Positions 3,870 through 46,017 of a stretch of 64,000 nt of DNA are shown piece after piece (position 1 is the first letter of the stretch; each line of letters opens with the position of its first letter). Location: assembly GCA_035513335.1 (NCBI GenBank), contig DATKCE010000031.1:20971-84970 (forward strand), read 5' to 3'. The notes under the pieces are model-generated. The model was not told the origin of the DNA. It saw only the letters and a list, made by a program, of their open reading frames with translations, and ran no database searches. The DNA is from Acidimicrobiia bacterium. GTDB taxonomy: Bacteria; Actinomycetota; Acidimicrobiia; Spongiisociales; ZC4RG35. A program made the translations under genes and the position numbers.

Positions 3870-4915
3870 CCGTGGAGCTGCTCGCCTCCGACGTAGGTGG
3901 CGACAACGTCGAGATCCTCGTTCAGGACGACCACGTCGGCCCGGCCACCAACCTCGAGGCTTCCCCTCCGTCCCAGTCCCAGGGCCCGGGCCGGATTGCG
4001 AGTGGCACAGAGCAAAGCCTCGTCGAGGCCGGCCGAGGTGGACGCGACCAGATGGGCCATCGCCCGGGTCAGTGTGACGACACTCCCGGCCAGGCGCCCA
4101 TCGCTGGTGCGGGGCCCGTCATCACCCACCGTGATCGGCCCGTCCCCCAGCGGATATGTGCCCGGCCCCAACCCGAGCGCCGCCATGGCGTCGGTGGCCA
4201 GGATGGTGCGCTCGGGCCCGAGCACCCGCCAGGCGACCTCCAGGATCGCCGCGGCCACGTGGATTCCGTCGGCTATGAGGAGACAGTGTGATGACGAGGT
4301 CAGTGCGGCGCCGACGACTCCCGGCTCGCGGTGTCCCATTGGGCTCATCTGGTTGAACAGATGAGTGACCGTCGAGGCGTAGCCGGCGAGGGCTTCCCTG
4401 GCAATGTCGTGGTCGGCAGCGGTGTGCCCGAGGGAAACGACGACACCGGATTCCGCCAGAGCCATGCCCACCTCGGTGGCGCCGGGCAGTTCCGGGGCGA
4501 GAGTGACCATGCGGACCAACCCGGAGCTCGCCCAGCGCTGCGCCGTGAGCAGGTCAGGTTCGACTATGTGCTCCGGGTTGTGGGCGCCGTGCATGCGTGG
4601 CGATATCCACGGCCCCTCGAAATGCAGCCCGAGGACCTCCGCTCCCCGGTAGTCGGATGGTCGTCGGTTGGCGACCACGTCCATGGCGAGATCGGTGACT
4701 TCGTTCGGTGAGGTGACGATCGTGGGAGTGAACCCGGTGACTCCGAGCTCGGGGAGTAGCCGACCGACCTCCCAGATCGTGGTGGGATCCTGGGTGAAGT
4801 CGTGGCCGAAAGCGCCGTTGATCTGGAGGTCGATTAGACCCGGTGCGACGATGTGCCCGCCGGCGTCGACCGTCGGCCCTCCCAGGCGGTCAGCGACGAG
4901 AACTCCATCTGCCAT
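3866..4915 (-). CDS. nagA: N-acetylglucosamine-6-phosphate deacetylase
   Basis: amidohydrolase signature GLIDLQINGAFGHDF plus downstream metal-ligand His/Asp. Start taken at Met31 (MADGVLV) of the track ORF; 4-nt overlap with the upstream gene. Confidence 0.85.
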   Translation of the reverse strand: MADGVLVADRLGGPTVDAGGHIVAPGLIDLQINGAFGHDFTQDPTTIWEVGRLLPELGVTGFTPTIVTSPNEVTDLAMDVVANRRPSDYRGAEVLGLHFEGPWISPRMHGAHNPEHIVEPDLLTAQRWASSGLVRMVTLAPELPGATEVGMALAESGVVVSLGHTAADHDIAREALAGYASTVTHLFNQMSPMGHREPGVVGAALTSSSHCLLIADGIHVAAAILEVAWRVLGPERTILATDAMAALGLGPGTYPLGDGPITVGDDGPRTSDGRLAGSVVTLTRAMAHLVASTSAGLDEALLCATRNPARALGLGRRGSLEVGGRADVVVLNEDLDVVATYVGGEQLHG

Positions 4916-25830: not shown

Positions 25831-26969
25831 TGGCTCATCCCGCGCCCGATCCCGACCTGGCGTTTCGCTATCTGACCGGAGAGACCGGAGACGCGGCGCT
25901 GCTCGAGCACGCCGCCAGGTTGCGCGACGACGGTAAGGGGCGTGTCATCACCTACAGCCGCAAGGTCTTCATCCCTCTCACGACGTTGTGTGTCGACCGC
26001 TGCTCGTACTGCACCTTCGCAAAGTCTCCGGGGGCGGGGGGCGTGTACCTGGAGCCCGAGGAGGTGTTGGCCGTGGCCCGCGCCGGCGACGCCCACGGCT
26101 GTACCGAGGCGCTCCTCACGCTGGGCGATCGCCCCGAAGAGAGATGGCCTCAGGCTCGTGAGTTCCTGGACGCGAAGGGACATCAGACGACCATTCAATA
26201 CGTGGCGGAGATGTCGACCCTGATCCGCACGGAGACGGGTTTGTTCCCCCACGCCAACCCGGGTCTGCTCTCGGAAGACGACTTCAAGCTCCTCCGGCCC
26301 ACCAATCCCTCGATGGGGATGATGCTGGAGAACATCTCACCCCGTCTCACCGAGCCCGGGATGCCGCATCACGGGACGGTCACCAAGACGCCCTCCAAGC
26401 GGGTGGCAACCATCGAGGCGGCGGGGAGGCAGAAGGTCCCGTTCACCACCGGGATCCTGGTTGGGATCGGGGAGAACAACCGTGAGATCGTGGACTCCTT
26501 GTTCGCATTGCGTGATCTCGCCGCGGGGACAGGAACCATCCAGGAGGTGATCGTCCAGAACTTCCGGGCCAAGGCCGACACCCGGATGCGCCACAGCGCC
26601 GAGCCGGTGCCCCGTTGGTTTGCCCGGGTGGTGGCGCTGGCTCGATGGATCATGGGGGCCGGGGCCAACATCCAGGTGCCGCCCAACCTCACCGAGGCCT
26701 ACGAGATCTACCTCGACGCCGGGATCAACGACTGGGGTGGGGTGTCACCGTTGACCATCGATTGGGTCAACCCGGAGGCGCCGTGGCCGCATCTCGACGA
26801 GCTGTCGGCGCGGACAGCGACCGCAGGGTTCGAGCTGCGTCCGAGGCTTCCGGTCTATCCCGAGTACATCGATGAGGAATGGATAGATCCCCGCTTGGTT
26901 GTCGATGTCAGAGCCGCGAGCGACCAAGATGGCCTCGCCGCAATCGGTTCTATGCCAGGAGTGCGATGA
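25830..26969 (+). CDS. cofG: 7,8-didemethyl-8-hydroxy-5-deazariboflavin (FO) synthase subunit CofG
   Basis: radical-SAM CVDRCSYCTF. GTG start overlaps the SDR stop (TAGTG). Upstream track-ORF extension is a GC artefact. Confidence 0.85.
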   Translation: MAHPAPDPDLAFRYLTGETGDAALLEHAARLRDDGKGRVITYSRKVFIPLTTLCVDRCSYCTFAKSPGAGGVYLEPEEVLAVARAGDAHGCTEALLTLGDRPEERWPQAREFLDAKGHQTTIQYVAEMSTLIRTETGLFPHANPGLLSEDDFKLLRPTNPSMGMMLENISPRLTEPGMPHHGTVTKTPSKRVATIEAAGRQKVPFTTGILVGIGENNREIVDSLFALRDLAAGTGTIQEVIVQNFRAKADTRMRHSAEPVPRWFARVVALARWIMGAGANIQVPPNLTEAYEIYLDAGINDWGGVSPLTIDWVNPEAPWPHLDELSARTATAGFELRPRLPVYPEYIDEEWIDPRLVVDVRAASDQDGLAAIGSMPGVR

Positions 26970-28816
26970 CAGTCACGTATTTGAGGATGAGACCCGCCGA
27001 TATGCTGGCCGAGCCCACCGCGGTGAGCCGCCGGCGTGAGGGGACGACCGCGATCGAGATGGCCGGCCCGACATCGACCGACGTGGCGTCAGCGAACAAG
27101 GCGGGTGTCCTGATCGCATCGAGCACCATGGGGGATGTCGACCCCGCTGGCTGGGTGCTAGCACCCGCCGGGGCCCTCCAATTGTCCCCCGAGCCCTGGC
27201 GTCTCACGGTTCTCGACGAGGGCACCAGGGAGGAAGTGCTCGATGCGCTGGCCCGGACGGGGGCCGCATTCCTCCGAACCACCCGCTCCCACGTCGCACG
27301 GGCTGCCGGGCTCACCGGTCTTCCTTCCATTCGGACTTCGGTGTCGGTGTTCGTCGACGACGTCGACCAGGCCTTGGCTGCGGTCGGCGATGGCGCAACC
27401 GATCTCCTGCTCCGTGACTGGAGTCAGGAGAGGATCGGAGAGTTGAGGGACGCCCTCGGCATCCCGCTCGCCGAGCGCACCCTGTTCCCGATCGGTGTCG
27501 AGATCGACGATGCGCGGGCGGCCCTTCCGAAGGGCGTTTTCACCGCCTGGCTGTCACAGGTCGACGGCTCTGGTGCGGCGCGACCCAGGTACGAGTGGGC
27601 ACCGGGCAGGGACATGGCGCCCCCGGTGCCGGCCCGCCGTATCTCGGCGGAGTGGAGCGATGCGGTGTGGGTCGATGGTCCGGCTCCCGAGGGCCTGGCC
27701 GGCGCCGGGGACCTTCTTCCTGTTCTGGAGCGCTCGTTGGATGGGACGCCGCCGACGGTCACCGAGATCGAGCAGTTGTTCCGGGCGCGCGGTGACCAGG
27801 TGGATGCGGTGGCTCAAGTCGCCGACGTCCTCAGGGAGCGATCGGTGGGCGACACGGTCACCTATGTCGTCAACCGCAACATCAACTACACGAATCTGTG
27901 CTACTTCAAGTGTGGTTTCTGCGCCTTCTCCAAGGGCCCCAAGTCGCTGAACCTGCGTGGCGAGCCGTATCTGATGGGCCTCGATGAGATCGTCGCCCTC
28001 GCCCGCCAGGCCTGGGACCGCGGGGCTACGGAGGTGACCTTGCAGGGCGGGATCCACCCCGACTTCACCGGCAACTTCTATCGGGAGGTGGTGGAGGCGA
28101 TCAAGACCGAGATGCCCGGCATGCACATCCACGGATTCACCCCGCTCGAGGTCTGGCAGGGGGCGGAGACCCTGGGGATCGGTGTGCGCCAGTTTCTCAC
28201 CGAGCTGCGTGACGCCGGGCTGGGCACACTTCCCGGTACCGCCGCCGAGATCCTCGACGACGACGTCAGGGCCCATCTCTGCCCGGACAAGATCCGCACT
28301 TCGCAGTGGGCGGAGGTGATGATCACCGCCCACGAGCTGGGGCTGCGGGCCACTTCGACGATCATGTTCGGGCATATCGACCATCCCCGCTCATGGGCCA
28401 AGCATCTCGAGGTGATCCGTCAGATCCAGAGACGCACCGGCGGATTCACCGAGATGGTCCCGCTGCCTTTCGTGCACATGGGGTCGCCGATCTTCCTGCG
28501 GGGACGGTCGCGCCCCGGTCCGACCTGGGACGAGGCGGTTCTCATCCATTCGGTGTCCCGGATCGCCTTCGACGGTCTCATCGACAACATCCAGGCCTCC
28601 TGGGTGAAGCTGGGCCTCGACGGTGGCGCCCGTCTCCTCGAGGCCGGCTGCAACGACCTGGGTGGGACTTTGATGGGCGAGATCATCACCCGCTCCGCCG
28701 GGGCCGAGCACGGTCAGGAGGTCACCCCCGCCGAGTTCGTGGAGGTCATCGAGTCGGTGGGCCGCACGCCCGCCCTGCGCAACACCACCTACGAGATCCT
28801 CGACCGGGTGGTCTGA
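26966..28816 (+). CDS. cofH: FO synthase subunit CofH with a ~270-aa N-terminal extension of unknown function
   Basis: C-terminal ~350 aa: radical-SAM CYFKCGFCAF and CofH-like downstream motifs. ATG overlaps the cofG stop (ATGA). N-terminal 270 aa match no family recognised. Confidence 0.8.
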   Translation: MTVTYLRMRPADMLAEPTAVSRRREGTTAIEMAGPTSTDVASANKAGVLIASSTMGDVDPAGWVLAPAGALQLSPEPWRLTVLDEGTREEVLDALARTGAAFLRTTRSHVARAAGLTGLPSIRTSVSVFVDDVDQALAAVGDGATDLLLRDWSQERIGELRDALGIPLAERTLFPIGVEIDDARAALPKGVFTAWLSQVDGSGAARPRYEWAPGRDMAPPVPARRISAEWSDAVWVDGPAPEGLAGAGDLLPVLERSLDGTPPTVTEIEQLFRARGDQVDAVAQVADVLRERSVGDTVTYVVNRNINYTNLCYFKCGFCAFSKGPKSLNLRGEPYLMGLDEIVALARQAWDRGATEVTLQGGIHPDFTGNFYREVVEAIKTEMPGMHIHGFTPLEVWQGAETLGIGVRQFLTELRDAGLGTLPGTAAEILDDDVRAHLCPDKIRTSQWAEVMITAHELGLRATSTIMFGHIDHPRSWAKHLEVIRQIQRRTGGFTEMVPLPFVHMGSPIFLRGRSRPGPTWDEAVLIHSVSRIAFDGLIDNIQASWVKLGLDGGARLLEAGCNDLGGTLMGEIITRSAGAEHGQEVTPAEFVEVIESVGRTPALRNTTYEILDRVV

Positions 28817-34145: not shown

Positions 34146-34643
34146 ATGCGATTCCTCACCCTGTTTGCTCTCGTCGCTCTCGCCGAGATGCTCACCTTCT
34201 TCTGGGTCGGCGACCGGATCGGTCTCGGCTGGGCACTGGGTCTCGCCCTCGCCACCGCATTGGTCGGGTCCTATCTGGTCCGCAGGGCCGGTCTCTCGGT
34301 GTGGCGGCGGATCCGACACAAGTTGAACGGTGGCGAGTTGCCGGGACGCGAGCTGAGCGACGGAGCTGCCATCCTGGTGGCAGGAGCCTTTCTCATCTCC
34401 CCGGGATTCATAACCGACACCCTCGGCTTCCTCCTGCTGCTGCCGGCCATCCGCTACTTCATCCACCGATCCGTGACGAAACGGTTCCGCAAGCGGGTCA
34501 CCGTGTTCACCTCTGACTATCAGACGGTGACGAGGGAGCCGATCCGTGGAGAGGTGATCGACATCGACCCGGACGAGGTCGACCCAGGCCGAGTCAGGCG
34601 GATAGCTCGGCGGGGAGGGCGTCGACCACGGCCAACTCCATGA
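34146..34643 (+). CDS. fxsA: FxsA-family cytoplasmic membrane protein
   Basis: MRFLTLFALVALAEMLTFFWVGDRIG ... PGFITDTLGFLLLLP characteristic of FxsA; basic C-tail. Confidence 0.7.
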   Translation: MRFLTLFALVALAEMLTFFWVGDRIGLGWALGLALATALVGSYLVRRAGLSVWRRIRHKLNGGELPGRELSDGAAILVAGAFLISPGFITDTLGFLLLLPAIRYFIHRSVTKRFRKRVTVFTSDYQTVTREPIRGEVIDIDPDEVDPGRVRRIARRGGRRPRPTP

Positions 34644-35181
34644 AGATGTCGACTACGGCAGGGTCGAACTGGGTGCCGGCGTTCTTGTTGATCTCATGCA
34701 CAGCGAAATCCACCGGGAGGGCCGGCTGGTAGGCACGCTTCGATGTCATGGCGTCGAAGGCGTCGGCCACCAGGACGATCCGGCTCAACACCGGGATGGC
34801 ATCGCCTGAGAGCCCAAACGGATAGCCCCCACCGTCGTAACGCTCGTGGTGATAGAGAATCGCCTCGGCGATCTTGGGGTCGAGACGGTTGCGGGTCATG
34901 GCGAAACCCAATTCCGGGTGTCGCTCCATGAGGTCACGCTCAGTAGGGTCCAGCGGCCCCGGCTTGCCCAGGATCCCCGGGTCCATGTGGATCTTGCCGA
35001 CGTCGTGGAGCACCCCGGCCAGGGCGAGGCGATCGATGTCTTCCTCCCCCAGCCCGAGACCGCGTCCGAGGTCCACGGCGAGGTTGGAGACGCGGTGAAC
35101 GTGCCCGTGCAAGTCTTCGATGACGTCTTCCATCACCTTGATGAGATAGTTGTCGGAGAGGTTTCTCATGCCATAGCCCAC
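34594..35181 (-). CDS. HD-GYP domain phosphohydrolase (likely c-di-GMP phosphodiesterase)
   Basis: HD motif GVLHDVGK and HHERYDGGGYP HD-GYP signature. Confidence 0.85.
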   Translation of the reverse strand: MGYGMRNLSDNYLIKVMEDVIEDLHGHVHRVSNLAVDLGRGLGLGEEDIDRLALAGVLHDVGKIHMDPGILGKPGPLDPTERDLMERHPELGFAMTRNRLDPKIAEAILYHHERYDGGGYPFGLSGDAIPVLSRIVLVADAFDAMTSKRAYQPALPVDFAVHEINKNAGTQFDPAVVDIFMELAVVDALPAELSA

Positions 35182-37706: not shown

Positions 37707-38810
37707 TTACCAGGGTCTTTCTGCTTGCTCCTCGCTCATGCTGGCCGGAATCTCGGTGGTTTCGGGCAGGCTGGCCAAGTCGTTGAGACGATCGATCAGC
37801 TGGCGGAGACGGCCGAACTGCCGTCGGTCGAAGTAGAGGGTGATCCGCTCCATGTCGAGGGCGTCGTCGTCCTCGATCTCTGCCTCGTTCGGCCCGGTCT
37901 TCTCGATCTCGCCTTCGACCACTATGTCGGCGAACTGCTCGTTGAGCTCGACCAGTTCGTCGTCCGTGGGAGCCTGACGGAGCCTGAGGATCAGTCTGCC
38001 CGCGGTGAAACGCTGGGAGTGATAGTTGGAGTAGAACTTGAAGATCTCCTCGCATGCCGCGTCGAGGTCGGTGGTCTGGAGGAAGAGATTCAGATCCGCC
38101 TCCGAGATCAAGCCCATGGCGAGGAGCTTGTCGGTGATGAACCCGATGAGTGGGCCCCAATAGCCGGTGCCTTCGGCTTCGAGGAGGACTATCGGGTGGA
38201 GGTCGGACTTGCCGGTCTGGAAGAGTGTGATCAGCTCGAACGCCTCGTCGAGGGTGCCGAACCCGCCGGGCATGATGACGAAAGCTTGGGACTCCTTGAC
38301 GAATCCGAGCTTGCGAGTGAAGAAGTACTTGAAATTGACCGTGCGGTCGTCGTCGATGTAATCGTTGGCCGTGGCCTCGAACGGGAGCCGGATGTTGACC
38401 CCGTAGGAGTTGTCGATGCCCGCTCCCTTGCTGCCGGCTTCCATCAGGCCGGGACCGGCACCGGTGATGACACCCCACCCGTGAGTGGCCATCGTGGTGG
38501 CCAGTTTCTCGGTGAGCTGGTAGTTGGGATCCCCCTCCCGGATCCGCGCCGAGCCATAGATGGTGACCTTGGGCTCGGGGTGACGGCTGAACACCAGGTT
38601 GGAGTAGCGCATCTCTTTGACCGCGGTGTTGATCAGCTTGAGGTCGCCACGTGAAGCGCGGTCCCTGTGCAACTTCAGGACGGTGATGATCAACTCCGCG
38701 ATGAGATCCTGGTGGTCGTTTTGCGAGGAATCGGCGATGAGGCTGCGAAGGCGCTCGTTCAACTCCTCGTTGCCGAGGTCATATGCCATCGATGGCACCG
38801 TACCCGACAC
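37707..38810 (-). CDS. LOG-family protein (cytokinin riboside 5'-monophosphate phosphoribohydrolase-like), long form
   Basis: GGGPGLMEA and PGGFGTLDEAFE LOG motifs; C-terminal acidic extension. Confidence 0.85.
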   Translation of the reverse strand: MSGTVPSMAYDLGNEELNERLRSLIADSSQNDHQDLIAELIITVLKLHRDRASRGDLKLINTAVKEMRYSNLVFSRHPEPKVTIYGSARIREGDPNYQLTEKLATTMATHGWGVITGAGPGLMEAGSKGAGIDNSYGVNIRLPFEATANDYIDDDRTVNFKYFFTRKLGFVKESQAFVIMPGGFGTLDEAFELITLFQTGKSDLHPIVLLEAEGTGYWGPLIGFITDKLLAMGLISEADLNLFLQTTDLDAACEEIFKFYSNYHSQRFTAGRLILRLRQAPTDDELVELNEQFADIVVEGEIEKTGPNEAEIEDDDALDMERITLYFDRRQFGRLRQLIDRLNDLASLPETTEIPASMSEEQAERPW

Positions 38811-38813
38811 GGC

Positions 38814-39845
38814 TCACTGCGAGGAGAAGGGCTTCTCCGCGGGTCCCTTGCGGACCACGGCGTTCCAGACGGTCTCGTAGTGGTCGCGGTCGAAACGATC
38901 GACCTGGGGTAGCACGAACTCCTCCCAAGCCTCCCGGAGGGGGTCGTCGCGGTCGGCGTAGATGAGCAGTCCGGTGGGGAGACGATCGAGCACCGAGCGC
39001 AACGAGAGCGGGGTCTCGACCCGGGTTCCGGTGTCGGTTTCGTCGAAAGAGGCGTTGATCTCCACGGTCAGGCGGGCGATCGCCTCGACGTAGGCGTCCC
39101 CGAGGCTGGGATAGCGGCGCTCCAGCATCGCCCTGACCTGCTCTTCGGCCGGGAACGATTTCTCCCATATCGCCCATCGATCGGCGAAGGCCTTGTTGAG
39201 GGTCTGGGTGCCGGCGTAGTCACGGATGTCGGTGGGGTTCATTGTGCCGAAGATGCGAACGTCCTCACGCAAGCTCACCGTCTCACCGTTGGGGAGGTCG
39301 AGAGCGGCATAGCGATCGAGCAAGGCGTGGAGGGCGAACAGGGTCTCGGCACCGGCGGCGTTCAGCTCCGACAGGTTGAGCAAGGCGGGGCCGCGCAGGG
39401 CTCGGGTGATGTCCCCGTCCTCCCAGCGGGACTCGGTCCCGCCCTTGCCGTCGCCATGGAGATGGGTCGACCCGATCAACGTCACGTCGCGGACCTCTCC
39501 GGTGAGGGGGATGCGGAAATAGGGGAGTGACATCGCGGCGGCAAACTGCTCTATGTCGTGGTCCTTCCCGGTACCCATGTGGCCGCGAACCGCGACGTGC
39601 AGCGGCACCAGGCCCTCCGCTCCGGTGCGACGAGCCTCTTCCACCTGGGCGAAGCGGTAGAGCATGCCCAGGTCGACATAGTGAGGGTCGGGTTCGGGGA
39701 TCTTCCGACGCCTCAGCTCGGCGTCTTCGATGTCGTCGGTGATGTCGAACGTCTCCAGCTCGATGGACGGCCCTTCACCGCTGGGATCTTCGAATACGAC
39801 TGTCTCAGGCAATTGCTGTCTCCTTGTCTTGAAAGTCCGTGGCAC
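38814..39845 (-). CDS. AAA_5 (MoxR/CbbQ/NorQ-type) ATPase with non-canonical Walker motifs
   Basis: P-loop region VRGHMGTGKD (Asp where Thr/Ser is expected); Walker-B region LLNLSELNAAG (Ser for Asp); sensor FGTMNP; paired with the downstream VWA gene. Confidence 0.75.
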   Translation of the reverse strand: MPRTFKTRRQQLPETVVFEDPSGEGPSIELETFDITDDIEDAELRRRKIPEPDPHYVDLGMLYRFAQVEEARRTGAEGLVPLHVAVRGHMGTGKDHDIEQFAAAMSLPYFRIPLTGEVRDVTLIGSTHLHGDGKGGTESRWEDGDITRALRGPALLNLSELNAAGAETLFALHALLDRYAALDLPNGETVSLREDVRIFGTMNPTDIRDYAGTQTLNKAFADRWAIWEKSFPAEEQVRAMLERRYPSLGDAYVEAIARLTVEINASFDETDTGTRVETPLSLRSVLDRLPTGLLIYADRDDPLREAWEEFVLPQVDRFDRDHYETVWNAVVRKGPAEKPFSSQ

Positions 39846-41892
39846 GCAGCCACCAGGTGTCCATGCCCGAGTAGGCGAGACTGCGCCTGAGGGCGCCGCG
39901 TGCTCCTTCGATCATGGCGTTGGCCAGCTGGTCGGGCTCGTCGACCACCTGGTGGCGTCGGTATGCCTGGTCGACGGTGTGGTCGCCGATCCCGATACCG
40001 ATGACGGTAGTGCCGGAGGCTTCGATGGACTCCACCGAGGTGGTCAGCGCATCGACCGACCCGCGGGTCATCCCGTCGGCGAGCACCATCAGGATGCGGA
40101 CGTCGGCTCCTAGCCGCCCCATCCGCTCAGCGGCGTGGACCACATTGAACTCGTCCACGTTGGCCGCTTTCTCGAACAGGGACACCGGAGGAGCGGAGCG
40201 CGCGTCGCGGCGGGCGAGGGTGGCTGCGCGTCGCGGGTTCATCGCCGTGAAGAAGAGACCGGCCAGTGTGCTCTGCGAGTCCCGCCAGCGACGGTCGAAG
40301 GGCTTGACCATATAGTGATTCACCGTCGAGGTGAGCCGGTCCGCCGCCGACCCTTGCGAACGTTTCAACCCCGCAGTCGCCGCCGACCGACTCCGGACAT
40401 AGCTCTCCTCGGAGTCGTCGGGCCGGGCGGCAAACCCCCGATTGAACAGAGCCACCTCGAAATCGATCTGGAGCTCGTTACAGAGCCTGGCCATGCTCCA
40501 TGCGCCGAGGACCGCGGCGGGCATCGCCCATTGAGTCCCGGCGTGAGCCTTGCGGCCGGGGCTTAGCATGGATGCCGACCCGTCGACGAGGAGGGAGACC
40601 GCATAGCGTCGCCTGGTCCGTGATGCCCTGCGCTCGTAGAGACGCTGATAGAGCCCGGCGCCGATGAAGAGCGCGGCGTGTGGCGAGACGTCGCCCTGGT
40701 CGAAACCGGAGCGCAAACCTCGGCGCTGGTTGGCTGCGAACAGAGGGAACAGCTCTCCGGAGACGTGGCGCTGGTCGACAGCCCATCGTTTGGATGCCTC
40801 GGCGATGGCTTCGGTGCCCTCCGCGCCGAAGCCGGCGAACGCGGCCGGGATCGGGGTGACCACGAGCTTTCCGCCCTGGCCGGTGGGGAGGAATACCTCC
40901 GGTGCCTGGCTCACCCGGAGCAGCTGGTTCGTCGACTCGTCGTCGGCCACGTCCGATGCCCCTTTGCGATCGGAGGGACCTGATCGGGCATCGGCGGCCC
41001 TCCTGGCGTTCTGGTACGACTCGGTGTCGGTGACGATGGGCGAGATGAGGCGGACACTGTCGACCCCCTCCGCCGCCTTCTCCGCGTCCATCTTCTGTGC
41101 CGACTTGCGCTGGGCGCCGCTGGCCGTCTCCGGCACCTCGGTCATCAAGCCGTTGGCCCTGGCGATGGCCTCCAGTTCGAGGGCGAGTTGGGCGACGTAC
41201 CACGGGTCCTCCGAGGCCGCCGCCTCTTCGCAGTGGCCGGTGGCGTCGGCCAGGGCTACCGCCGCCCTGGCATCGAAACGCTTCTCGAGGACTTCGCGCT
41301 CGACATATCCGGCGGTGAGGAGGAAACACCCCAGCACGAACTGGCTGAGGGCCCCCGACCGGGCGATCGCCTGGCTGAGAGAGGACAGGTACAGGTCCTG
41401 GAGCACCGAGCGCGCCCCGGGATAGTGGGAGAGGCCGTGGGCCTCCTGACGGGCGTCCTCCAGGGAGAAGAACAGGACTTCCGCCACCGGCCTCTCCGTT
41501 CGCTCCAACGCAGTGAGCAGGTCTACCTCGGCATCGGTCTTCAACTCGCTGTCGACTGGCCAGTCCTCGGGCAGGGTGCGCACCTCGTCGAGGTTGGTGG
41601 ACACCAGGTGCATGACCTCGTGGAGCGCCGACGCCAGGGCCACCTCGTCAGGGGTAACGGGGGCACTCCGGTGGTAGGCCGCCTGGAAGATCCGGGGGTC
41701 GCAGGTGATCTCGTCCGGTGAAGACGACGACTCAGGCCCGAGCCGCACCCTCAGATTCGGGTTCTCGGAGAGGCTCCTGGCGAGACGGGTCACGGCAGGG
41801 GCAACTCGCTGATATCGGCCCACCACGGCCTCGATGGCCTGGTCTTCGGGGCCGATCAGGTCGGTCAGGAAAGTCTGTTCGCGTGCGCGCAC
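39805..41892 (-). CDS. VWA-domain protein (CbbO/NorD/CobT-like partner of the AAA ATPase)
   Basis: C-terminal VWA with MIDAS LLVDGSASM ... ILMVLADG; large N-terminal helical region containing an HEVMH (HExxH) motif. Confidence 0.8.
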   Translation of the reverse strand: MRAREQTFLTDLIGPEDQAIEAVVGRYQRVAPAVTRLARSLSENPNLRVRLGPESSSSPDEITCDPRIFQAAYHRSAPVTPDEVALASALHEVMHLVSTNLDEVRTLPEDWPVDSELKTDAEVDLLTALERTERPVAEVLFFSLEDARQEAHGLSHYPGARSVLQDLYLSSLSQAIARSGALSQFVLGCFLLTAGYVEREVLEKRFDARAAVALADATGHCEEAAASEDPWYVAQLALELEAIARANGLMTEVPETASGAQRKSAQKMDAEKAAEGVDSVRLISPIVTDTESYQNARRAADARSGPSDRKGASDVADDESTNQLLRVSQAPEVFLPTGQGGKLVVTPIPAAFAGFGAEGTEAIAEASKRWAVDQRHVSGELFPLFAANQRRGLRSGFDQGDVSPHAALFIGAGLYQRLYERRASRTRRRYAVSLLVDGSASMLSPGRKAHAGTQWAMPAAVLGAWSMARLCNELQIDFEVALFNRGFAARPDDSEESYVRSRSAATAGLKRSQGSAADRLTSTVNHYMVKPFDRRWRDSQSTLAGLFFTAMNPRRAATLARRDARSAPPVSLFEKAANVDEFNVVHAAERMGRLGADVRILMVLADGMTRGSVDALTTSVESIEASGTTVIGIGIGDHTVDQAYRRHQVVDEPDQLANAMIEGARGALRRSLAYSGMDTWWLRATDFQDKETAIA

Positions 41893-41975
41893 AAGCCGTT
41901 CATTGTCTCATGCCTCGTCAAGCGACTCACATCGACCCTTCTGCTTTCGCCGCCGATACCTATACCCTGCGCCGC

Positions 41976-43232
41976 GTGCACTACGACTTCACCACTCTTC
42001 CCAACGGCCTGAGGGTGATCACCGAGCCGATGCCGTCTCTCAGGTCGGTGGCGATGGGCTGTTGGATCGACACCGGCACCAGGGACGAGAACGGGAACGA
42101 GGCCGGAGTCTCTCACTTCCTCGAGCATCTGTTGTTCAAGGGCTCGGAGAAGCTCTCCGCCCGCGAGGTCAACGAGACCCTCGACGCCATCGGAGCGGAA
42201 TCCAACGCGTTCACGTCGAAAGAGGCGACCTGCTACTGGACGCGTCTGCTCGACCAGGACCTGGCCGTCGGGTTGGACGTGTTGGCCGAGATCATCCAGC
42301 GGCCCGCGTTCCGGGTCCGCGAAATCGACTCGGAGCGCCAGGTGGTGGTGGAGGAGATCAACATGAACGAGGACGACCCGTCCGACGTCGTCTTCGAGAA
42401 CTTCACCACCGCCGTGTTCGCCGGCCATCCTCTCCAGGAACCGGTGCTCGGGACCCGGGAGTCGATCCGGGCAATGACCCGGGACGACATCCATGGCTAC
42501 TGGAAGCGTCGCTACGGGACCGGCTCGTTGGTCGTGGCCGCGGCCGGCTCGATCGACCACGAGAACGTCGTCGAGATGGTGGCTGAGCGTTTCGGCGACT
42601 GGTCCGGTGATCTGGTGGACCATCAGAGTCGGCCGGCCCAGGTCGTTCCCACGGTGAACCTGACCAGACGCGAGACGGAACAGGCCCACCTGGTTCTCGG
42701 CGGCCCCGGTCTGGCCCGGAGCGACGAGCGTCGTTGGGCCTTCGAGGTGCTCAACCACGTCATGGGCTCGGGAATGTCGTCGCGGCTGTTCCGTGAGGTA
42801 CGTGAGGAGCGGGGGCTTGCCTATGCGGTGTACGGGTTCAAGCTCGCCTACTCCGACAACGGGGCCTGGGGTGTCCACGTCGGAACCACCCCTCATCAGA
42901 CGGACACCGCCCTGAACGTGATCCGCGACGAGCTCACCAAAGTCGTGGAGGAAGGGATCACGCGCGAGGAATTGGAGCGGGCCAAGGGCTCGATGCGGGG
43001 CGGTCTGGCACTGTCCCTCGAGGACGCCAACAGTCGGATGGTCCGTCTCGGCCGTGACGAGCTCGCCGGGATGCCCCATCTGTCGGTTGACGAGCGTCTG
43101 GAGAAGCTGGACGGCGTCGATCTCGACATGGTCAGGTCGGTGGCTACGGACGTCTACGGCGGCCCCGTCAGGGTGATGGGCGCGGTCGGCCCCTTCGAGG
43201 AACACGAGCTAGACCAATACTTGGAGGTTTGA
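41976..43232 (+). CDS. M16-family zinc peptidase (insulinase-like)
   Basis: HxxEH inverted zinc motif HFLEHLLFKGS. GTG start at 41976 (VHYDFTTLPNGLRV) preferred over the track start. Confidence 0.85.
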   Translation: MHYDFTTLPNGLRVITEPMPSLRSVAMGCWIDTGTRDENGNEAGVSHFLEHLLFKGSEKLSAREVNETLDAIGAESNAFTSKEATCYWTRLLDQDLAVGLDVLAEIIQRPAFRVREIDSERQVVVEEINMNEDDPSDVVFENFTTAVFAGHPLQEPVLGTRESIRAMTRDDIHGYWKRRYGTGSLVVAAAGSIDHENVVEMVAERFGDWSGDLVDHQSRPAQVVPTVNLTRRETEQAHLVLGGPGLARSDERRWAFEVLNHVMGSGMSSRLFREVREERGLAYAVYGFKLAYSDNGAWGVHVGTTPHQTDTALNVIRDELTKVVEEGITREELERAKGSMRGGLALSLEDANSRMVRLGRDELAGMPHLSVDERLEKLDGVDLDMVRSVATDVYGGPVRVMGAVGPFEEHELDQYLEV

Positions 43233-44224: not shown

Positions 44225-44677
44225 TTGACCTATCGCGACATCCTTCTCGTCCTCCACATCGCCGGAGCCGGGACCTGGCTGGGAGCCAATGTCGTCCAGG
44301 CCGTCGTGCCTCCGGCGGCGGCGATATTGGGCGCTACCACACTCGCCGGCTGGTACCGCCTCACCTCGGTGCTGGCCCGACGTCTCTACATGCCGGCGAC
44401 TCTGCTCATCCTGATCACCGGGGTGCTCCTGGTGCTCCAGGACGCCCGCTACGGGTTCGGGACCACGTTCGTGACCATCGGCTTCGGCATGATCGTGGTA
44501 GGCGCCCTCCTGGGGGCGCTCATGTTCGGGCCGGGAGGAGAGACGGCGGCCGAGGCGGTCGAGTCGGGTGATGGCCCGGCGATCAGGCTGGCCGTCACCA
44601 GGATCACCAGATGGGGGCTGATCGACACACTCCTACTCATGCTCACGATCACGGTCATGGTGTTACGTCTCGACTGA
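44225..44677 (+). CDS. DUF2269-like integral membrane protein
   Basis: 150 aa, four TM helices. Confidence 0.55.
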   Translation: MTYRDILLVLHIAGAGTWLGANVVQAVVPPAAAILGATTLAGWYRLTSVLARRLYMPATLLILITGVLLVLQDARYGFGTTFVTIGFGMIVVGALLGALMFGPGGETAAEAVESGDGPAIRLAVTRITRWGLIDTLLLMLTITVMVLRLD

Positions 44678-44694
44678 CCCGTACCATCGCCTTC

Positions 44695-46017
44695 GTGGTC
44701 CCGCGACGAAGCCTCCTGTTGTCTATCGCCCTGGTGGCGGCGTGCACCGGCGAGCCCGGCGGCGGCGGCGTCAAAATCACCGAGACGATGCCTTCCACGT
44801 CCTCCACCAGCACCACCACGACCTCTCTCACCACGACCTCTCCCACTACGACGTCTCCCACCACGACCACGACCCAACCCCTGGTCAACGTCTCGGGGCG
44901 GGTCGCCAGAGACGACGGCACCCCGGTGCCCAGAGCCTTCGTCGAGATGGGCGAGATGAGATCGCTCACCGGCCCCGACGGTTGGTTCTCCTTCGAGACG
45001 CCCGCACCGGGGACCATGACGGTCTCGAAGCCGGGATGGAGCAGCGCCGAGCTGATGTGGGAGGAGGGGACCGCGTTCTACCGGGCAGTCATCGAGCCAC
45101 AGACGATTCGTGGCATCAGGGTGGGCGCGGAGGCGGCTCAGAGCGACCGGTTGTTCAACGGTCTGTTGTCGCTGGCCGACGATACCGCCGTGAACGCCCT
45201 GGTGTTCGACACCAAACAGGAGGGCGGGCGGGTGCTCTACGACACCAGGGTGTCAGACGCTCACCGGATCGGGGCGGTCGAGGAGTTCTATGACCCGGTC
45301 GAACGGATCGCCCAGGCACATGAGCGCGGCCTCTACACGATCACACGGATCGTCACCTTCGAGGACGGCCAACGCGCCGCCGCCTTCCCGGAGGACAGAC
45401 TGGTGGGGCCATGGCTGGACCCGTCAGCACCGGGGGCGCGCTCCTACAACCTGGAGCTGGCCGAGGAGGCGTGTGACATCGGGTTCGACGAGATCCAGTT
45501 CGACTACGTCCGATACCCGTCGGGAAGCACCGCCGAGCGGTCCGGCCAGCGGGACCTCACCCAGGATCAGCGTGTCGACGCGATAGGCGGGTTCCTGCGG
45601 GAAGCACGCCAGCTCCTCCATCCAATGGGCTGTGCGGTGAGCGCGGCGGTCTTCGGCATCGTCGTCTCCTCCTCGAACGACCAGGGCATCGGTCAGATGC
45701 CCGAGGCGGTTTCGACTCAGGTAGATGTGCTCAGCCCGATGGTCTATCCGAGTCACTATTCGCCGGGATGGCTCGGGTTCGAGGACCCCAACGACCACCC
45801 CTACGACGTGACCGCCGACGCCCTGGCCTCCGCCAGTCGGCGTATGGCGGACGGAAGTGAGCTGCGGCCATATCTGCAAGCGTTCTGGTGGTCGAACCAG
45901 CAGATCCGGCGGTCGATCCAGGCTGCCGAGGACGCCGGCACCGGCTGGTTGCTCTGGAACATCATGAGCAACTTCGACCGGGCGGCAATACCCACCGACG
46001 CCGATCTGGGCGGCTGA
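44695..46017 (+). CDS. putative glycoside-hydrolase-like (DUF4015-type TIM barrel) lipoprotein with a CarboxypepD_reg-like domain
   Basis: GTG start gives signal peptide with lipobox LVAAC; Ser/Thr-rich linker; C-terminal domain matching the uncharacterised GH-like family. Confidence 0.65.
   Translation: MVPRRSLLLSIALVAACTGEPGGGGVKITETMPSTSSTSTTTTSLTTTSPTTTSPTTTTTQPLVNVSGRVARDDGTPVPRAFVEMGEMRSLTGPDGWFSFETPAPGTMTVSKPGWSSAELMWEEGTAFYRAVIEPQTIRGIRVGAEAAQSDRLFNGLLSLADDTAVNALVFDTKQEGGRVLYDTRVSDAHRIGAVEEFYDPVERIAQAHERGLYTITRIVTFEDGQRAAAFPEDRLVGPWLDPSAPGARSYNLELAEEACDIGFDEIQFDYVRYPSGSTAERSGQRDLTQDQRVDAIGGFLREARQLLHPMGCAVSAAVFGIVVSSSNDQGIGQMPEAVSTQVDVLSPMVYPSHYSPGWLGFEDPNDHPYDVTADALASASRRMADGSELRPYLQAFWWSNQQIRRSIQAAEDAGTGWLLWNIMSNFDRAAIPTDADLGG

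Follow-up and report, generated by a model that had tools for sequence, protein, structure and literature searches.

The window analysed here, 64 kb of contig DATKCE010000031.1 from an uncultured Acidimicrobiia bacterium, carries on its reverse strand two overlapping genes that encode a VWA protein (hereafter the adaptor) and a MoxR-class AAA+ ATPase. The pair had been singled out in an earlier, sequence-only reading as an AAA_5 protein with degenerate Walker motifs accompanied by a VWA/MIDAS protein of the CobT/NorD/CbbO kind bearing an HExxH motif. All of the peptides quoted there (GHMGTGKD, LLNLSE, FGTMNP, DGSAS and HEVMH) were recovered, and their coordinates were checked by translation (Table 1).

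The ATPase and its Walker motifs

The longest form of the ATPase open reading frame (ORF), at 38814-39845 on the reverse strand, encodes the 343 amino acids (aa) reported earlier, but the probable start lies further in. Since the AAA homologues have their first residue opposite L12 of this ORF, the start is most likely the TTG at 39812, which gives a protein of 332 aa. A Shine-Dalgarno sequence, AAGGAG, lies 7 nucleotides (nt) ahead of this codon. The TTG overlaps the stop codon of the VWA gene (TTGCCTGA), the two genes sharing 8 nt, and they are therefore translationally coupled.

The Pfam AAA_5 profile matches the ATPase with an E-value of 8e-13 (49 bits for a cutoff of 22). Sequence matches in the PDB include midasin, CobS (9ujv, E 2e-11), CbbQ (E 1.6e-9) and NorQ (E 6e-7), and phage CobS is about 26% identical along 85% of the length. 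The score against the NCBIfam CobS equivalog (TIGR01650) is 48.7 bits for a cutoff of 558.55. Residues K94, E160, N203, R223 and R283 align with the corresponding residues of the MoxR class and are invariant, as expected of an AAA_5 protein. Together with the profile comparisons and fold match of the adaptor described below, these results bear out the earlier assignment of both proteins.

The canonical GxxGxGK[S/T] and hhhhDE signatures are replaced by GHMGTGKD and LLNLSE. The key residues of CobS have been mapped to G71-S78 (Walker A), D141-E142 (Walker B), N186 (sensor 1), R210 (Arg finger) and R271 (sensor 2) (bioRxiv 10.64898/2026.07.21.739949). Compared with this map, the ATPase exhibits two differences only: the Mg-ligating Ser/Thr is Asp95 and the Walker B Asp is Ser159. 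The residues described as degenerate are thus indeed altered, and the Walker B Asp is lost; however, alignment with CobS and midasin places the catalytic Glu at Glu160, where it is retained. As aligned, the motifs are not degenerate but carry a precise reciprocal exchange in which the other catalytic residues are kept.

This exchange is a fixed character. Walker A reads GHMGTGKD (once GHMGSGKD) in 119 of 120 homologues and Walker B LLNLSELN or LINLSELN in 118, while sensor 1 (FGTMNP or YGTMNP, already noted as intact), FADRW and PLSLR or PMSLR are found in all 120. Among the related loci, the two motifs are present in 80/84 and 78/84 cases, respectively, the misses corresponding to truncated or gapped contigs. 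One apparent loss of the ATPase gene, in a TARA scaffold (L081, ~4300-4500), is an assembly artefact: the gene contains a run of N with duplicated flanks, and absence of the gene from this locus was ruled out. In total the swap occurs in every intact family sequence examined (~200), in three clades. Across the related loci, D95 is encoded by GAC or GAT only and S159 by all four TCN codons, and the adaptor residues H91, E92 and H95 each use both synonymous codons. Such synonymous-only variation at motif codons is the signature of purifying selection rather than of error or decay. The invariant motifs combined with synonymous codon variation therefore rule out a local sequencing error, of which orthologues with canonical GKT/DE motifs would have been the sign according to the sequence-only reading, as well as a pseudogene.

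The three clades comprise that of the window and two more distant ones, called here the 53% and the 30% clade. Identity between clades is 55-67% for the ATPase and 30-50% for the adaptor. The partner ATPases of the 53% and 30% clades both carry GHMGTGKD and (L/I)INLSELN, while the three outgroup partners examined carry GKS or GKT with DE or EE in Walker B. Since the swap is found in all three clades and is missing from these three outgroup partners, it is a synapomorphy of the family. The C-terminal region of the ATPase, from about DPLR to the end, is also strongly conserved, and the helix-2 inserts are 5 residues longer in the alignment of the window protein.

In a survey of 3,136 P-loop catalytic sites, the Ser/Thr that follows the Walker A Lys (K+1) and the Walker B Asp were the sole strictly conserved proton-translocating Walker residues; a short hydrogen bond connects the two, and replacement of either abolishes activity (PMC9599734). 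Because the two exchanged residues are in direct contact and every other hydrolysis-specific residue is kept, the exchange is best read as a compensated inversion and not as decay. ATP binding would then be kept and hydrolysis retained, probably with altered kinetics or metal dependence. We know of no earlier case of an inverted Walker pair; a literature search for a GKD/SE swap returned no precedent either, which for a text search cannot prove absence.

Domains and putative metal site of the adaptor

The adaptor matches no Pfam (E 0.01), NCBIfam or PADLOC model, and falls below the Pfam gathering scores of CobT and CobT_C. An Acidimicrobiia metagenome-assembled genome (MAG) encodes a protein that is 100% identical to it. 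A phmmer search against 1.84 billion representative proteins yielded 178 matches at E <=0.001. These consist of its own family, the 53% clade (P0241), the 30% clade (P0248) and then CobT-like proteins, which are matched in the VWA region only and with E-values of 1e-11 or weaker. In a profile-profile comparison (hhalign) of the family with 17 CobT-like proteins, the half containing the finger and VWA domain aligned with a probability of 99.9 (E 4e-31) and the N-domain with a probability of 85.6 (E 5.5e-6). The N-domain alignment is in register: HEvmH falls on an invariant HEVxH and LEDARQE on an invariant vEDxxIE. The family profile matches the solved CobT with an E-value of 1e-4, and the CobT-like set matches the solved Brucella CobT with 2e-57.

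The HEVMH motif lies within LASALHEVMHLV. HE..H is kept in the close homologues, in the intact relatives at 47-53% identity (P0241, P0245, P0247 and P0253) and in the relative at 30% (P0248). E150 is invariant in the family, and its stretch aligns with the invariant D102 and E106 of CobT-like proteins; the alignment of this stretch with EQARVE of the solved CobT is weak and below significance. The AlphaFold2 (AF2) model of the N-domain (mean predicted local distance difference test, pLDDT, 85.4; predicted template modelling score 0.82) consists of a helix, a three-stranded sheet and a helical bundle. H91, E92 and H95 are located on helix 81-98 and E150 on helix 135-153, a zincin-like layout conserved down to 30% identity. 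The motif is therefore not an accident of a non-conserved helix, a possibility raised when it was first noticed, but belongs to a conserved helix of a confidently predicted domain. Foldseek comparison with BFVD retrieved phage CobT-like/VWA proteins (probability 1.0, TM-score up to 0.63).

HExxH is nevertheless no peculiarity of this protein, as the sequence-only reading might suggest. It is found at residues 58-115 in 36 of 42 long CobT-like outgroup proteins and is the ancestral motif of the CobT-type N-domain rather than a special acquisition of the adaptor. The N-domain of CobT has been reported to resemble peptidase M48C (bioRxiv 10.64898/2026.07.21.739949), and in jumbo phages a MoxR ATPase had already been noted whose vWA partner bears a metallopeptidase at its N-terminus (PMC7824862).

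The remainder of the adaptor follows the CobT plan of disordered linker, pre-VWA shaft and five-residue MIDAS. In CobT, a disordered linker of ~90 residues is followed by a shaft (Q373-R413) that enters the CobS pore only with nucleotide bound (bioRxiv 10.64898/2026.07.21.739949). The linker of the adaptor, variable in alignments and with pLDDT <50 at residues 282-316, is the counterpart of that of CobT and also of the NorD linker (bioRxiv 10.64898/2026.07.21.739949; PMC13036017). The finger is almost invariant among close homologues and aligns with the pre-VWA segment of CobT-like proteins; its low pLDDT (391-427) is as expected if it is ordered only inside the ring. The full-length model thus combines a low-confidence linker and finger with a confident VWA domain. 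The best PDB fold matches of the latter are the NorD VWA bound to NorQ (E 2e-6) and the MIDAS domain of MDN1. All five MIDAS residues are invariant in the family. In the alignment, N578 and D606 fall on N518 and D546 of CobT, and the DxSxS pattern, represented by D422, S424 and S426 in CobT, is matched by D437-S439-S441 (CobT residues from bioRxiv 10.64898/2026.07.21.739949).

Table 1. Features of the adaptor and ATPase genes in the window
Feature	Position	Strand	Description or basis
CobT-like adaptor gene	39805..41892	-	695 aa: zincin-like N-domain, linker, finger, VWA/MIDAS; ORF list, translation check
CobT_N-type (zincin-like) domain, aa 1-255	41128..41892	-	AF2 model, Foldseek vs BFVD
HEVMH (H91, E92, H95), putative zinc-binding/catalytic motif	41608..41622	-	Alignments, AF2 helix 81-98
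EDARQE (D146, E150), candidate third metal ligand on next long helix	41443..41460	-	Alignments
Charged linker of low conservation, aa 256-330	40903..41127	-	Alignments, pLDDT
Finger/shaft, aa 374-429, predicted to enter AAA+ pore	40606..40773	-	Conservation, pLDDT, alignment
VWA domain with full MIDAS (D437, S439, S441, N578, D606)	39865..40605	-	Alignments, fold match
DGSAS of VWA	40570..40584	-	Translation
CobS-like MoxR-class AAA+ gene, 332 aa	38814..39812	-	Pfam AAA_5; longest ORF to 39845
Walker A GHMGTGKD: Lys94 kept, K+1 Ser/Thr replaced by Asp95	39561..39584	-	CobS alignment (GTGKS)
Walker B LLNLSE: Asp replaced by Ser159, catalytic Glu160 kept	39366..39383	-	Alignment with CobS DE and midasin DELN
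Sensor 1 FGTMNP, N203	39234..39251	-	Outgroup partners MNP/NPS; sensor-1 region of CobS
Arg finger R223 (FADRW)	39177..39179	-	Aligned with DRW of CobS
Sensor 2 Arg R283 (PLSLR)	38997..38999	-	Sensor-2 Arg region; NorQ/CbbQ-like partner in L086

Gene neighbourhood, distribution and known relatives

Transcription runs from right to left through the VWA and AAA genes, a LOG-like gene, DinB/MDMPI (TIGR03084), BtpA, an enoyl-CoA hydratase (ECH) gene and a gene for an HD-domain protein. Since both members of the pair lie on the reverse strand, they head this string of genes; it had been proposed that they terminate it. Upstream lies a divergent gene for an M16 peptidase. Its longest ORF (41718-43232, forward strand) runs 175 nt into the 5' end of the adaptor gene. 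A 418-aa homologue in L088 indicates that the true M16 start is probably near 41976, which would leave a divergent promoter region of ~80 bp.

A genome scan using one genome per GTDB species identified relatives in 348 species, of which the best 80 loci were kept. These all show at least 72% identity and come from MAGs mostly labelled Acidimicrobiia, some labelled more broadly as actinobacterial and several assigned to other phyla. Their common gene order is M16 (divergent), then VWA, AAA, LOG, DinB, BtpA, (ECH), HD and Lhr. ECH is present in 20 of the 80 loci only. In L001, L003, L004, L008 and L088, an extra 0.9-2 kb lies between AAA and LOG, in L088 an alpha/beta-hydrolase gene, so that the pair has no fixed partners among the genes downstream. 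YajQ and an OTCase-family gene come next after the pair in the 53% clade. The 30% clade is a marine lineage of 32% GC, in which the pair adjoins dapA/dapB and LOG is absent; MDMPI (MDMPI_N) and BtpA occur beyond two opposite-strand genes, within 2 kb of the pair. The 69-aa products of a neighbour gene seemingly shared by two distant clades proved to be unrelated.

The VWA and AAA genes, by comparison, lie side by side in the window as in every related locus of sufficient length, including those of the 53% and 30% clades, and the pair is more conserved than its neighbours. Because only these two genes stay together in distant relatives, the functional unit is the two-gene pair, LOG, DinB, BtpA and ECH representing synteny. 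The wider region is of housekeeping character (M16 peptidase, dapA/dapB, DnaE, FtsK, RNase J, 2-oxoacid dehydrogenase and Lhr). The pair is vertically inherited and confined to uncultured Acidimicrobiia.

Several neighbouring genes show features of their own. The LOG-family protein (37707-38810, reverse strand) is a long form of 367 aa, in which the LOG core (~aa 81-256, TIGR00730) has ~80 additional aa on its N-terminal side and ~110 on its C-terminal side, with a weak partial match to the PpnN nucleosidase. The HD_5/HD-domain protein (34594-35181, reverse strand) gives weak PADLOC matches to Cas3-HD and Cas10, which reflect generic HD similarity, and has no CRISPR context. On the forward strand, the gene at 44611-46017 encodes a putative DUF4015 glycosyl hydrolase with a Thr/Ser/Pro-rich low-complexity stretch past its N-terminal region; it is syntenic upstream of the pair in 51 of the 80 loci. 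Also on the forward strand, the gene at 26879-28816 encodes a 645-aa radical-SAM and CofH_C protein (FO-synthase or MqnC-like) whose first ~330 residues have no Pfam match.

The best named sequence relatives of the pair are CobS and CobT of the aerobic cobaltochelatase CobNST (Brucella 9ujv and 9uka). The resemblance extends to an AAA_5 ATPase of ~330 aa that carries both the helix-2 and the pre-sensor-1 inserts and has a helical extension at its C-terminus, and to an adaptor in which a peptidase-like N-domain and a disordered linker precede a pore-inserting shaft and a VWA domain with five-residue MIDAS. However, the window pair is far below the equivalog thresholds, has the adaptor gene first and the ATPase gene second, possesses an intact HExxH...E, carries the Ser to Asp and Asp to Ser exchanges in Walker A and B, and is restricted to Acidimicrobiia. 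NorQ/NorD, the FeB-insertion chaperone of cNOR (9qh6, 9qh8, 9qhe; PMC13036017, PMC9976466), similarly combines a MoxR-class hexamer with an adaptor made of N-domain, linker, finger and VWA; the NorD VWA is the best solved fold match for that of the adaptor, and the twisting and stretching described for NorQ/NorD serve as a template below. In contrast, sequence similarity to NorQ/NorD is low, the gene order is reversed, no NOR genes lie near the pair and the Walker motifs of NorQ are canonical. With the Rubisco activase CbbQ/CbbO, the pair shares a MoxR AAA_5 protein and a VWA/MIDAS adaptor, which in CbbQ/CbbO remodel a metalloenzyme. It differs in lacking a Rubisco context and a CbbQ_C domain, and the adaptor families are different.

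The CobT-like/CobS-like pairs of viruses and mobile elements (jumbo phage, PMC7824862; viral cobST, PMC8651126) share the N-domain with HExxH and ED..E, the linker, the VWA domain and the AAA_5 partner, and the mobile pair in L085 has the same order of adaptor then ATPase as in the window. Unlike them, the window family is chromosomal, vertically inherited, highly conserved and swapped, while the mobile partners examined carry GKS or GKT. Two such CobT-like/AAA_5 pairs with HExxH (L085, 6001-9522; L087, 3899-7863) lie in mobile elements beside replication and establishment genes, with neighbours that include an integrase, ParA, RPA, a PolIII-alpha-UDG fusion, PcfJ and DpnD-PcfM; such surroundings hint that the role of the mobile versions is linked to replication or establishment. 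P0327 (L086, 1722-4545), the closest relative of the adaptor outside the family, lacks HExxH. Its partner is a CbbQ_C-type ATPase located beside a COXG gene, and the order is ATPase then adaptor.

The window pair probably works like CobST and NorQD but does not belong to CobS and CobT proper. It is a new deep chromosomal branch of the CobT-like/CobS-like group and, judged from its sequences, a lineage-specific one of the MoxR AAA+/VWA motor-adaptor class.

Proposed mechanism, alternatives and significance

The pair is rather probably a motor-adaptor chaperone of the CobS/CobT-NorQ/NorD type with a compensated ATPase site. CobST (bioRxiv 10.64898/2026.07.21.739949) and NorQD (PMC13036017) provide the mechanistic templates. 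By homology with these solved complexes, the 332-aa AAA+ protein would form a hexamer. The zincin-like N-domain of the adaptor would dock on the helices of the small AAA+ subdomain and the finger (aa ~374-429) would enter the pore, where it would be held by the helix-2 inserts, leaving the VWA/MIDAS site and the N-domain turned toward a putative client protein. The Asp95/Ser159 swap would keep a carboxylate-hydroxyl pair beside Mg-ATP. Nucleotide cycling would then rotate or pull the finger and VWA domain against the N-domain, so that the linker would be stretched and the client remodelled. The N-domain probably binds a metal, which is proposed because its HExxH...E is intact, unlike in the N-domain of bona fide CobT. 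This metal might be handed to the client, as in other metal-insertion chaperones of the class, or the client might be cleaved. A bolder version, which we advance tentatively and rate somewhat below even chances, sees a fully functional ATPase with an inverted catalytic pair, the first natural case, driving an ATP-powered, MIDAS-targeted zincin protease or metal-delivery device that would serve an important Acidimicrobiia client.

Several observations weigh against this interpretation. Single replacement of either swapped residue kills other P-loop nucleoside triphosphatases (NTPases; PMC9599734), so hydrolysis could be lost. The gene neighbourhood offers no candidate client, VWA and AAA being its sole constant. 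The alignments on which the AF2 models were built are shallow (21-24 sequences). The fold of the N-domain matches phage CobT-like models, but a Foldseek search of the PDB with the N-domain gave no meaningful match and no similar solved zincin. Pfam searches of the N-domains at E up to 10 returned nothing significant, the SprT-like hint having an E-value of 0.26. The motifs and the preprint statement on CobT_N are the grounds on which peptidase or metal-binding activity is proposed.

The first of these points leads to the view that the AAA+ protein is a pseudo-ATPase, which with its retained Lys, sensors and Arg finger would still bind ATP but not hydrolyse it, and that the ring, stabilised by nucleotide, serves the VWA/zincin adaptor as a static scaffold or switch. 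Both residues called indispensable for P-loop catalysis are indeed replaced, and the change is fixed across the family. However, Glu160, the sensor-1 Asn, the Arg finger and the sensor-2 Arg serve hydrolysis and not binding, yet all are invariant; the exchange is reciprocal, between touching residues, and looks compensatory; and the AAA+ protein is the more conserved partner between clades. We therefore consider a pseudo-ATPase unlikely, though a serious contender. A genuine aerobic cobaltochelatase CobS/CobT for vitamin B12, with CobN encoded elsewhere, would account for CobS and CobT being the closest named families. It is highly improbable given the scores far below the CobS equivalog (48.7 bits against 558) and the Pfam CobT and CobT_C thresholds, the link of the family to CobT-like proteins at E 1e-11 or weaker among 1.84 billion proteins, the lack of a CobN-like protein among the large ORFs scanned in the window, and the Walker residues, which differ from those of functional CobS (G71-S78, D141-E142; bioRxiv 10.64898/2026.07.21.739949).

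The other two alternatives concern the context of the pair. The sequence-only reading had suggested that VWA, AAA, LOG, DinB/MDMPI, BtpA and ECH might constitute one uncharacterised multi-enzyme system. Most of the 80 Acidimicrobiia loci keep this order, the genes being tightly spaced or overlapping, and MDMPI_N and BtpA still lie less than 2 kb from the pair in the 30% clade. Yet these loci represent one lineage at >=72% identity, in which shared order can be inherited synteny within a housekeeping block. The AAA-LOG inserts, the scarcity of ECH, the other genes that follow the pair in the 53% clade, and the absence of LOG and the two opposite-strand genes in the 30% clade all argue against a six-gene system, which we judge very unlikely. 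Least credible of all is a defence or conflict system or a mobile-element cargo, comparable to viral cobST or to MoxR-VWA conflict systems. Such pairs are known in conflict systems (PMC7159879), and CobT-like outgroup proteins with HExxH do occur in phages and mobile elements. In contrast, the window pair has a fixed chromosomal position and very high conservation in all 80 loci kept, and GC content is uniform with the surroundings across the window. PADLOC gave no match for either protein or for the neighbour genes except the generic HD similarity, and a defence system was rejected on this basis. A viral origin was likewise rejected: no IMG/VR sequence matched the family-specific Walker A peptide, and phage CobS is only ~26% identical. 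Among plasmids, only an Acinetobacter CobT-like VWA protein was retrieved (29% identity over a third of the protein), with no close plasmid or phage relative.

The motor-adaptor class was already known; what sets this family apart is the inverted Walker pair. According to one proposal, the short hydrogen bond between the K+1 Ser/Thr and the Walker B Asp acts as a proton trap in all P-loop NTPases (PMC9599734). A family that keeps this pair inverted under strong selection offers a natural test of the proton-trap model and of Mg coordination. With this family, the small set formed by CobST, NorQD and CbbQO gains a chromosomal and apparently important member, and attention is drawn to the many CobT-like adaptors in which the zincin site is intact. 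The adaptor is called a hypothetical protein wherever it is named, and a model of the family would allow more than 1,000 sequence clusters in the databases to be annotated. Since the pair is retained even in the marine lineage of 32% GC, its client is probably part of the core physiology of uncultured Acidimicrobiia.

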